Part shown: one piece after another, positions 6,282 through 9,172 of the stretch
Position numbering within the stretch: position 1 is the stretch's first letter
Layout of the letters: each line of letters starts with the position of its first letter
Assembly: GCA_965217775.1 (NCBI GenBank)
Contig: CBDCJH010000002.1
Location: 3,456,001-3,520,000 of the forward strand
Source: Acidobacteriota bacterium
GTDB lineage: Bacteria; Acidobacteriota; UBA6911; RPQK01; JAJDTT01
DNA: 64,000 nt
Reading direction: 5' to 3'
Made by a program: the position numbers and the translations under genes
The notes under the pieces: model-generated
The model's input: only the letters and a program-made list of their open reading frames with translations
Database searches by the model: none
What the model was told of the DNA's origin: nothing

Positions 6282-6527
6282 TTGCCCGTCGATTTCGCTC
6301 CCAGTCTACTACGACGCCGCGCCCATCTGCCAGCCGGACGGAGCCACCGGCGGCAGGAGATCGGCAACTGCGGGAACCACCGTTCGGCTTCGATGCAACC
6401 GCTATCGGTGCCGCTCATTTGCCAGTCGATGTCCACAGCGGATCTTGCCGACTGCCGTTAACTTCGAAGGTAGTCTGTACGACTTGTCTGATTGTTGAAG
6501 ACCTCTTCTCGTTTGAAGAGTTCGTAT

Positions 6528-6685
6528 CAGTCCGTGGTGAAAGTCGCGCGAGCACCGAGACCGTTCCTGCGCCCGCCGGACAAGGCGCGATGAGGGAGCA
6601 TACCGGGAGTATGTGACCGAGTCGCAACGCAGTCCGCCGGGATGCAGGGACGGTCGAATGCCGTGACGACTTTTGCCACGGGCTG
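6528..6685. mobile_element. 158-bp MITE copy 1
   Basis: TIRs CAGTCCGTGGTGAAAGTC / GACTTTTGCCACGGGCTG; 4-bp TSD GTAT at 6524-6527 and 6686-6689. Confidence 0.9.
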
Positions 6686-6909
6686 GTATGCTTCGGGGAG
6701 GAAAATCCGGGCGGATATGATCTCCGCCATGGGGATTACAACTCGAAAATCCTCATACGCCAATCCGGATGACCCTTCAAGGGATTTCCAGATCACAGGA
6801 GCATACGTGGTGGTGATTTCCAACTCCTGCTTGTCTTTATCGCGAAAGCCGCCAGCCATTGGTACGAGTTCGATGTCACCCTCACCCTGGCTTCCGATTC
6901 CGCTCTTGA

Positions 6910-7067
6910 CAGTCCGTGGTGAAAGTCCCGCGAGCACCGAGACCGTTCCTGCGCCCGCCGGACAAGGCGCGATTCGGGTGCATACCGGGAGTATGTGCCC
7001 GAATCGCAACGCCGTCCGCCGGGATGCAGGGACGGTCGAATGCCGTGATGACTTTTGCCACGGGCTG
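6910..7067. mobile_element. 158-bp MITE copy 2 (in-frame insertion)
   Basis: Near-identical to copy 1; 4-bp TSD TTGA at 6906-6909 and 7068-7071. Confidence 0.9.
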
Positions 7068-7557
7068 TTGAGGGCAAAGCCAATGTAGACCTTCCTGCTA
7101 TTCAGGGCGATCTCAACCAGCTTCTGATCCTCGATAGATTCCGCGACCAGTAGCTCGATGAGGTCTCCATCTCTTTCCGCTGCACGTCGAGCCGCCTTTT
7201 CTTCGTTGTAGAAACGGTTGCCGGCAAACGGTAGCGCGATTCCTAAAAAGGCACTCAGAAAAATGGCCGTAGAAGAGTAAGGGATTGAATCGTACGACTT
7301 CCACGCCAAGTCTATCCAGGGCAGAAAGTAGTTCAGAGGAAGAACGACCAAGTGTGCAATAGCCGCCAGGATGCCGCCGGAAACCGTGGCCCGGAAGAAG
7401 ACATGGTAACCGGAATCACGCAGAGCGTCGTAACGTGTGAAGTGGAGATGGGTCAGAAACCAGTATCCACCAAGAGTCGAGATGAGAAACAGGCCAAGAC
7501 CCAAGGGAAACAGTTGGGGATTATATACGTAAGTGCCGAGAATTCAGGCTGATGGGT

Positions 7558-7563
7558 TACAAT
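7558..7563 (+). promoter_or_regulatory. Putative -10 box (TACAAT) for a leaderless tnpB transcript
   Basis: TACAAT lies 7 nt before ATG 7571; no SD sequence visible. Confidence 0.5.
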
Positions 7564-7570
7564 TCCGACC

Positions 7571-8746
7571 ATGAAAGGCCACGCAACTATCCAGTGCAGA
7601 GCCAAGCTGTCCAAGGGTGGAATCCGGCGGTTGGACGGGGTGAGGTCCATCCTGAATCGGCTGTACAACGCTGCGCTGGAGGAACGCAGGACGGCCTGGG
7701 AATCCGAGCAACGCGGCGTGACCCTGTACGATCAGATGAAGGGGTTGACCTCCCGGAGGAAGGACGATCCGGAGGGGCTCGGGTCGGTGGCGGTCAAGGC
7801 GGAGCGTGGGATGTTGATGCGGTTGGACCGGGCCTTCAAGGCGTTCTTCCGTCGCTGCAAGGTGGGGGAGAAGCCGGGGTATCCTCGATTCCGGCCCATT
7901 GCGAGGATGGAGACCATCGACGTCGTCGACCCCAAAGCGACCCTGGTGAAGAAGCGCGCTCGGGGCTACGCCATCCGGCCCAAGGGCTTCCCGACGATCC
8001 GGATCTTTCCGTCCCGGCCGTTGCCGGACGGATGCCCGTTGAAAGCGTTGCGGATTGTCCGCAAGCCGAACCGGGTGTATGTGGACCTGACCTACGAGGT
8101 GGAGAAGCCGCCGCTACCGAAATGCGAGTCTTCGGTAGGGATCGACCTGGGCGTCCGCAAGCGAGCGGTGCTGTCCACGGGTGAGAGGATCGAACGGAAT
8201 AGACGGGACTGGGCGGGGATCCGAAAGCAGCAGAGAAAGGTCTCCAGGTGCAAGAAGATTTCCAAGACCAGACGGAAGCGGATCGTACAGCTATCTCGGC
8301 TCCGTCACCGGGAATCGGTCCGAAACCGTAATGCCTGCCATCGTCTCTCCAGCAGGATCATTCGTGAGCATGGTCTGATCGCTGTGGAGAAGCTGAACAT
8401 CCAAGGGATGGTAACGAAGGGCTCGAAGAAGAAGGGGCTGAATCGAGAAATAATGACGCAATCCTGGGGGCTTCTGCGGAATCAACTCCAGTACAAGGCA
8501 GAATGGGCCGGTCGGGAGTTCGTAGAAGTGAATCCCGCATATACATCGCAGGACTGCCACCGGTGCGGCGCCCGCCACGATCCAGGGCGGAGCGAAACCT
8601 TCCGGTGCAGGGCCTGCGGACTTGGAATGGACAGGGACCACAATGCCGCCCTGAACATTCTCAGGGCTGGGGTTCTTGCCCTGGGCACCGGAACGTATCT
8701 CGTTGGGGAAAGCGTGGTGCCAGAACTGTATGCCAAGGGCACTTAG
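7571..8746 (+). CDS. tnpB: RNA-guided endonuclease TnpB
   Basis: N-terminal LYNAALEER and KPGYPRF; RuvC-I VGIDLG; RuvC-II IAVEKL; VNPAYTSQ; Zn finger CHRC..CRAC; RuvC-III DRDHNAALNI. D-E-D triad intact. Confidence 0.95.
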   Translation: MKGHATIQCRAKLSKGGIRRLDGVRSILNRLYNAALEERRTAWESEQRGVTLYDQMKGLTSRRKDDPEGLGSVAVKAERGMLMRLDRAFKAFFRRCKVGEKPGYPRFRPIARMETIDVVDPKATLVKKRARGYAIRPKGFPTIRIFPSRPLPDGCPLKALRIVRKPNRVYVDLTYEVEKPPLPKCESSVGIDLGVRKRAVLSTGERIERNRRDWAGIRKQQRKVSRCKKISKTRRKRIVQLSRLRHRESVRNRNACHRLSSRIIREHGLIAVEKLNIQGMVTKGSKKKGLNREIMTQSWGLLRNQLQYKAEWAGREFVEVNPAYTSQDCHRCGARHDPGRSETFRCRACGLGMDRDHNAALNILRAGVLALGTGTYLVGESVVPELYAKGT

Positions 8747-8780
8747 GTATATAAGCCCCAAACAGTTCCTGACGGGTGAA
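8660..8780 (+). ncRNA. Putative TnpB reRNA/omegaRNA 3' scaffold and guide
   Basis: Hairpins CAGGGC/GCCCTG (8662-8683) and GGCACC/GGTGCC (8684-8721) overlap the tnpB 3' end, where TnpB guide RNAs are normally encoded. Boundaries are inferred. Confidence 0.45.
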
Positions 8781-8791
8781 CCCGCCGATCC

Positions 8792-8989
8792 TTACGGACG
8801 TTTTTTCGGAGGTCGGCCAGACGATTTTATTCCAAAGTCGAGTTTCGCCATCTGTTCGATGACTGCGCGCGCCCTTTTACTGCGGAGCAACTCATCTGCC
8901 TTGACGTACAGCCGGCCTTTTGGCGTCACGTACACGGGGGGACGCTCCCGCTCAGTTGACGGACGTTTTTTCGGCGACACATTCTTCAT
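8792..8989 (-). CDS. Small basic hypothetical protein
   Basis: AAGGAG RBS upstream of ATG; 65-aa ORF directly upstream of the disrupted membrane gene. Confidence 0.6.
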   Translation of the reverse strand: MKNVSPKKRPSTERERPPVYVTPKGRLYVKADELLRSKRARAVIEQMAKLDFGIKSSGRPPKKRP

Positions 8990-9172
8990 GGTGTCTCCTT
9001 TACTTGTAACGCGTGGAACTCAGCATACACGACTATGTCGCTTCCGCATTTGGGGCGGACCATGCGCATCCGAGAGAAAAACGGGCAACAGAGGGAGGGC
9101 TCCGACATCACCAGGCGTCGAAGAGAGTGCATCCCCGGACCCGGTACGATACGGGATCTTGGCCCCGAACCG

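Follow-up and report, generated by a model that had tools for sequence, protein, structure and literature searches.

The RNA-guided nuclease TnpB, the ancestor of Cas12, is thought to help insertion sequences (ISs) of the IS200/IS605 and IS607 types survive their own scarless excision. What, then, is a tnpB gene doing between terminal inverted repeats (TIRs), flanked by an 8-bp target-site duplication (TSD)? Such a gene lies in a 64,000-nt stretch of the genome of an Acidobacteriota bacterium (the window, G000:C2:3456001-3520000 in a 6.43-Mb assembly of 2 contigs; positions are those of the window unless a contig is named). An earlier note, made from the letters alone, held that the nuclease had been captured into a non-autonomous cassette that an IS1595 transposase moves in trans, a bacterial parallel to the capture of Fanzors by TIR transposons. 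Here we report a follow-up of that claim. The tnpB cassette is very probably a non-autonomous derivative of the IS1595 family that is moved in trans and that carries a functional TnpB and a probable guide RNA (ωRNA); a motif at its left junction is a candidate target-adjacent motif (TAM).

The element occupies positions 7516-8759 (1244 bp) and is bounded by its TIRs, with tnpB as the sole gene. The left TIR, GGGGATTATATACGTAAGTGCC (7516-7537, plus strand), and the right TIR (8738-8759, minus strand; GGCACTTAGGTATATAAGCCCC as read on the plus strand and GGGGCTTATATACCTAAGTGCC as the reverse complement) are complementary at 20 of 22 positions and form the longest inverted repeat between 7300 and 9000 (I1, 24 nt, 92%). 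Outside them the 8-mer AAACAGTT is repeated perfectly, at 7508-7515 and, abutting the right TIR, at 8760-8767. A leader of 33 bp (7538-7570) leads from the left TIR to the ATG of tnpB. The gene itself (7571-8746, plus strand) encodes 391 amino acids (aa) and is the only long open reading frame (ORF) between the TIRs; its stop codon, TAG at 8744-8746, falls within the right TIR. The cassette contains no transposase gene. The inverted repeat, the direct repeat and the solitary gene had all been claimed in the earlier note, and all three are borne out.

Is this arrangement a mobile unit, or could the direct repeat have arisen by chance? The genome holds 13 full-length copies of the element, of which 12 are 94-100% identical in nucleotides and the thirteenth 85%, along with four further stretches (71-77% identity) that cover only part of it. 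Similarity between copies stops exactly at the TIR tips. Eleven of the 13 have perfect 8-bp TSDs, all different (AAACAGTT, AAACCGTT, ATAATCTA, ATAAAATA, ATTTGATT, AAAGATTA, AAATACTT, ATTGAATT, ATTGCTTG, ATGAGAAA and AAACAATA), so the other tnpB copies with different TSDs for which the earlier note proposed to look do exist; one copy has a TSD matching at 7 of 8 positions and one has none. The site is found empty in two genomes of the same genus, G005 and G006 (loci L079 and L078), where a single 8-mer, AAACAGTT or CAACAGTT, is present. The empty allele had been predicted to read CCAAGGG-AAACAGTT-CCTGACGG. In G005 this prediction is matched almost letter for letter (...ccaatggAAACAGTTcctgacgg...), and the allele is likewise found in G006 (...ccaagggCAACAGTTcctgacag...), the flanks being 76-88% identical. 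A contig from run X9 joins position 7510 to position 8763, which places the empty allele in a natural sample as well. Because 13 copies end at the TIR tips, their TSDs differ and unoccupied sites exist, a chance repeat is excluded. The one full-length cassette without a TSD, at G000:C2:1186780-1188023 with flanks AATGGATT and AAACATAT, may reflect recombination between two copies or an adjacent deletion.

Relatives of the protein at 69-97% aa identity were found only in genomes labelled Acidobacteriota, the next best match standing at 45%, and six of the nine genomes of the genus have a match at E up to 1e-40. These relatives form about six nucleotide subfamilies (A-F), all with TIRs starting GGGG[A/C]TTATA. 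Among their sites are nine perfect 8-bp TSDs, two that match at 7 of 8 positions and two without a TSD; two left ends are decayed or could not be resolved. That the clade shares its ends, as the capture reading anticipated, is seen at homologous loci of 72-97% aa identity, which carry these TIRs together with TSDs. More distant relatives come from metagenomes: a TnpB alignment scan gave 80 loci at 31-41% identity, 44 of them with enough flank to test. None of the 44 combines a TIR of at least 13/16 with a TSD of 7/8 or better, and GGGG[AC]TTATA is absent from all of them. The 29 ORFs upstream of tnpB at 32 metagenome loci gave no transposase-family match, so this outgroup is not assignable as Y1-associated.

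If the cassette has no transposase of its own, what moves it? A search of the genome for its TIR, allowing up to 5 mismatches, found 38 sites: 23 in cassettes, 14 in seven non-cassette elements and a single orphan. A 1762-bp IS with perfect TIRs, GGGGATTATATACGAAAGTGCC, and 8-bp TSDs (G000:C2:836929-838690 and four more copies) accounts for five of those seven. A 334-aa ORF in this IS, intact in four copies and broken in one, matches DDE_Tnp_IS1595 (PF12762; 1.8e-38, 132 bits against a cut-off of 27) and the NCBIfam model transpos_IS1595 (NF033547; 177 bits against a cut-off of 75). Its zinc ribbon (PF12760) scores 24.5 bits, just below the cut-off of 25.4, with the CxxC...CxxC motifs visible. 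The cassette's left TIR is identical to that of the IS at 21 of 22 positions and its right TIR at 19 of 22, and the likeness fades beyond about 25 nt. Thus an autonomous IS1595 element with shared TIRs is resident in the same genome, as the earlier note had hoped to find, and its description of the cassette as non-autonomous with IS1595-type ends is upheld. The 8-bp TSDs that it called typical of IS1595 elements are made by both the cassette and the helper IS. The element ends read GGGGATTAT or GGGGCTTAT, and the helper TIRs begin GGGGATTAT; the end consensus of the ISNwi1 subgroup in ISfinder is GGnnATTAT. The helper IS also occurs in G006, at 98% protein identity, and G006 holds A-type cassettes as well. 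No locus with both a transposase and tnpB, as expected of a two-gene ancestor, was found in 96 IS loci and 181 TnpB loci.

The helper IS has a further feature of its own. About 715 bp lie downstream of its transposase and hold a 110-aa ORF (L074:1717-2046, plus strand) with weak restriction-endonuclease-like matches (NA-iREase1, 3e-06, 27.6 bits against a cut-off of 27; Mrr_cat, 0.0017). Possibly it is a remnant, or else a gene carried as a passenger. Against Rfam the helper IS gave no matches.

Might the TIRs and tnpB nevertheless belong to separate elements? A complete tnpB element of IS200/IS605 type (IS1341-like) could have nested in an older IS1595 miniature inverted-repeat transposable element (MITE). 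The protein is ISDra2-like, and according to a 2026 review (PMC13565253) TnpB normally travels in IS200/IS605 or IS607 elements, neither of which has TIRs or TSDs. The compact layout argues otherwise: the 33-bp leader is too short for an IS605-type left end, the stop codon sits inside the right TIR, and as single-stranded DNA the ends fold no better than shuffled sequences (z 0.55-1.19, with 0.55-0.59 for the left leader). This layout is common to all cassette subfamilies: in 12 subfamily representatives the ORF stops 5-28 nt short of the end of the element. No tnpB-less MITE with these TIRs was found in the genome, where cassettes and transposase-bearing ISs account for 37 of the 38 TIR matches. 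The earlier note had named two observations that would tell against capture. One was homologues that lack TIRs and TSDs and have IS605 hairpin ends; the homologues keep both. The other was an internal left and right end of IS605 type, for which there is neither room nor sign in the cassette. With 22-bp TIRs, an 8-bp TSD and no hairpin ends, the element stands outside the IS200/IS605 elements (IS1341 group), although its protein is of that lineage. We consider nesting highly improbable.

The captured protein appears to have been kept functional. In Pfam the 391-aa ORF matches OrfB_IS605 (1.1e-17) and Cas12f1-like_TNB (4.7e-26), and it scores 213 bits against the NCBIfam model guided_TnpB (NF040570; cut-off 100). 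Residues 31-375 align with ISDra2 TnpB (8bf8/8exa/8h1j) at E about 1e-31, and in this alignment the motifs GIDLG, AVEKL and DRDHNAALNI and both CxxC pairs are found in TnpB. The RuvC D-E-D triad and zinc finger had been described as intact, and they are: D192, E273 and D356 are invariant in seven aligned subfamily sequences. Between the cassette subfamilies dN/dS is 0.12-0.30, which points to purifying selection. Among the 13 full-length copies the frame is intact in 10 of A type and one of B type; of the other two, one is interrupted by a TGA and the other by a 158-bp insertion.

A TnpB nuclease would also need its RNA. We aligned the final 300 nt of 14 cassettes that represent six subfamilies. 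RNAalifold predicts 71 pairs, 16 of them with compensatory change. On this structure 97.3% of cells are paired, a structure derived from that very alignment, and the compensatory changes, being shared within subfamilies, amount to about four or five independent events and not 49 cells. None of 500 shuffles reaches any of five measures, and slid controls pair at only 36-46%. Three helices (numbers 11-13), at 8662-8683, 8684-8689/8716-8721 and 8693-8701/8706-8715, have three compensatory pairs each and are 99-100% paired; in a fourth, 8727-8732 pairs with a segment of the right TIR, 8748-8753. The last 105 nt have a minimum free energy of -43.3 kcal/mol (z -2.59). Synonymous divergence (pS) falls to 0.23 at codons 361-390 and 0.37 at codons 301-330, as against 0.5-0.7 elsewhere, and within the latter codons lies a block (8484-8522, plus strand; alignment columns 28-66) that is nearly invariant in nucleotides in all cassette subfamilies. 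The conserved 3' structure is probably the scaffold of a putative ωRNA, whose 3' part would span 8662-8759 on the plus strand and overlap both the end of the ORF and the right TIR. A small RNA suggested at 8474-8523 by short high-depth contigs was considered and rejected: it coincides with the block conserved in all subfamilies and probably represents collapsed variants.

Does TnpB leave a mark on where the cassette is found? We examined 23 cassette sites whose TSD matches at 7 or more of 8 positions, one of which (L030) was added by hand; four sites without a TSD (L004, L023, L025 and L027) were dropped, and of these only L004 has the motif described here. Immediately 5' of the left TSD stands a G in 22 of the 23 sites, the first TSD position is A in all 23, and the second is A or T in all 23. 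A G-A step therefore crosses the junction on the 5' side of tnpB in 22 of 23 cases. The mirror image, T-C, crosses the right junction in only 5 of 23. At the present locus the left flank reads GGG (7505-7507, plus strand), and the G at 7507 (position -1) and the A at 7508 form the step. We found no published report of such a one-sided junction bias.

How might this bias arise? The G-A(W) motif may be the TAM of TnpB and may shape which insertions persist. We propose this because in the empty site the motif lies on the 5' side of the sequence that a guide would match, because it resembles the GAT of the ISDra2 motif TTGAT, and because Fanzors offer a parallel. The guide would be encoded by the TSD and the right flank (8760-8779, plus strand), by analogy with other TnpB systems as presented in PMC13565253, if the ωRNA reads through the right end of the element. 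In the empty site G-A directly adjoins, on the 5' side, the target of such a read-through guide; once the cassette is in place, the equivalent position at the right junction is taken by the C at the tip of the TIR. We regard the identification of the motif as a TAM as a serious possibility, though one that falls somewhat short of being probable.

The same bias might instead come from the transposition complex. On this account an IS1595 transposase moves the cassette, TnpB merely rides along as a passenger (whether neutral, beneficial to the host, or a regulator that acts independently of nuclease activity), and G-A reflects an asymmetry of the complex on the cassette ends. The autonomous ISs do show a weaker preference of the same kind. 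For the cognate IS (n = 16) G-A is present on the left in 5 of 16 cases and T-C on the right in 3 of 16, that is, at 8 of 32 half-sites. Besides the genome's own copies, 33 of 82 autonomous IS loci could be resolved (TIR at least 14/18, TSD at least 7/8); these have the motif on the left in 13 cases and on the right in 8, or 21 of 66 half-sites. It is argued in PMC13565253 that an OMEGA nuclease may be of little benefit to DDE transposons, and here both the transcription and the cleavage activity of TnpB are putative. But the cassette bias is strictly one-sided with respect to tnpB: 17 sites have the motif on the left only and none on the right only (sign test, p 1.5e-5), and the one-sidedness extends to subfamilies C and D, in which the left and right TIRs resemble each other. 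The resolved autonomous ISs, in contrast, show no orientation bias (11 left-only against 6 right-only, p 0.33), and the cognate IS differs from the cassettes in the frequency of left G-A (5/16 against 22/23, Fisher p 2.6e-5). A mere passenger is also hard to reconcile with purifying selection on TnpB across about six subfamilies, with invariant catalytic residues and with a structured RNA, bearing compensatory changes, that overlaps the 3' end of tnpB. We judge this explanation unlikely.

Returning to a cassette moved in trans with a working nuclease, the events may be pictured as follows. Most likely, the transposase of the co-resident 1762-bp IS would bind the cassette's near-identical 22-bp TIRs in trans, and an 8-bp staggered cut at insertion would produce the TSD. 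With its loose and symmetric target preference, this DDE transposase would scatter the cassette. TnpB would most likely work with an ωRNA whose scaffold lies in the last 100-300 nt, overlapping the end of the ORF and the right TIR, and whose guide is read from the flank, that is, from the TSD and the right flank. The nuclease would then cut unoccupied alleles that carry G-A(W), and recombinational restoration would bring the cassette back. Only copies that had landed with a TAM at the 5' end of tnpB would be defended or driven, and these would persist. The sequences show the TIR identity, the TSDs, the multiple copies, the empty site, the integrity of the protein and the selection on it, the conserved RNA structure and the site bias; catalysis in trans, the expression and ends of the ωRNA, the identity of the TAM and the homing or retention role of TnpB are inferred from them.

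Several observations weigh against this picture, in addition to the dependence of the RNA test on its own alignment and the small number of independent changes behind it. IS1595 elements are not known to excise by cut and paste. The helper is not seen everywhere: G005, with 5 D-type cassettes, shows a single IS1595-type transposase hit, which is interrupted by a stop codon and has no matching TIR, and a search of that genome revealed no element bounded by TIRs of D type. A scan of positions 7300-9000 against Rfam (E up to 5) gave two chance-level hits only, and a promoter and terminator scan made no calls on the plus strand, with no sigma-70-like promoter in the leader. In RNA libraries the word depth is about 18-26 on the element and about 4 on the flank, a 5- to 6-fold excess that is no proof of transcription because there are at least 12 copies per genome and carry-over of DNA could explain the ratio. 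Finally, the TTGAT of ISDra2 is longer and less G-rich than a TAM of essentially G(A/W) would be.

Two observations belong beside these points. The stretch occurs in 20 of 24 listed sequencing runs, from 9 studies, and six are on record as RNA. Four RNA-library runs were examined as contigs, and so without strand, ends or level; their contigs cross position 8760 into the flanks of other known copies, and contigs cannot prove a transcript. As for G005, its D-type cassettes (L029, L031, L032, L034 and one more) have intact 386-aa frames, and they may be stranded without a helper.

How does the cassette compare with known systems? Associations of this kind are already on record. In the PNAS article of Altae-Tran 2023 (PMC10691335), six DDE-associated branches of TnpB (DDE-1 to DDE-6) are described, all with inverted terminal repeats, as are solo TnpBs between nearly identical ends; mobilisation in trans is proposed for the latter, and a link to Fanzors is drawn. 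The review PMC13565253 names ISL2, IS630 and IS1031 and calls such cases rare and uncharacterised. As with the DDE-associated and solo TnpBs of PMC10691335, TnpB lies here between TIRs, and the ends of the cassette are close to identical with those of an element that has a transposase. From the 3' end of the ORF to the end of the transposon is 13 nt here, as against within 250 bp in that article. Unlike the DDE-associated branches described there, the partner here is an IS1595-family IS that itself lacks tnpB. We found no IS1595 partner of TnpB in print; the main text of PMC10691335 names IS630 only and contains no instance of the term 'IS1595'. The comparison with Fanzor capture in the earlier note must accordingly be divided. 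The capture reading is supported, but the idea is not unprecedented, since PMC10691335 already contains it. The kind of system is thus already known, and the IS1595 partner appears to be unreported. What is new is the completeness of the natural system and the oriented junction motif.

Three further comparisons place the system. The protein aligns with ISDra2 TnpB over nearly its full length and shares its RuvC and zinc-finger motifs, and a structured RNA at the 3' end of the gene reaches the end of the element; the core of the candidate TAM, G-A-(T/A), may be set beside the GAT of TTGAT (the TAM as given in PMC13565253). Unlike ISDra2, an IS200/IS605 element, the cassette is bounded by TIRs and flanked by 8-bp TSDs and lacks both hairpin ends and a Y1 transposase, and the proteins are only about 30% identical. 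Like the Fanzor TIR and TSD transposons described by Bao and Jurka 2013 (PMC3627910), it places a TnpB-type nuclease in a DDE transposon that makes TSDs. The 5' TSD of Fanzors is read as part of the TAM in PMC13565253; here the junction motif includes TSD positions 1 and 2. Unlike Fanzors, the cassette is bacterial and has a standard short TnpB, and its 8-bp TSD is mostly variable, so the whole TSD cannot be the TAM. The IS1595 family, with its ISNwi1-like subgroup in the ISfinder classification as the nearest candidate, provides the helper's transposase domains, the TIRs and the 8-bp TSDs, and the cassette departs from that family in having no transposase.

The surroundings of the insertion offer some observations of their own. 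At 7504-7515 the cassette is inserted in the ELF codons of a frame on the minus strand, one that stays open through the empty site of G005. The insertion lies inside, or immediately upstream of, the 5' end of an ORF that looks membrane-like and whose function is unknown. In the right flank a perfect 16-nt direct repeat, ACGGACGTTTTTTCGG, occurs at 8794-8809 and 8959-8974, 165 bp apart. The right flank has a second match at the empty locus in G005 (L079), so a short duplicated segment adjoins the insertion. Within the neighbouring minus-strand ORF (6527-7504) are two copies (6528-6685 and 6904-7073) of a repeat of about 160 bp. This repeat has 232 matches in the genome at E < 1e-20 and many more in sister genomes, and one copy (158 bp, 97-98% identical) is inserted in a tnpB cassette at G000:C2:4647530-4647687. 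It resembles a very successful MITE-like element.

How TnpB serves a DDE transposon that makes TSDs is a question raised in PMC13565253. The cassette family described here is an unusually complete natural system in which to ask it, with an active-looking set of copies, a helper in the same genome, empty alleles, diverged subfamilies on which covariation can be analysed, and a predicted TAM. It also provides a compact nuclease of 391 aa whose ωRNA seemingly lies almost wholly inside the gene. If the G-A(W) motif is indeed a TAM, the junctions would be evidence from natural populations that an OMEGA nuclease shapes the spectrum of insertion sites of a bacterial DDE transposon, and part of the TSD would double as TAM, as in Fanzors.

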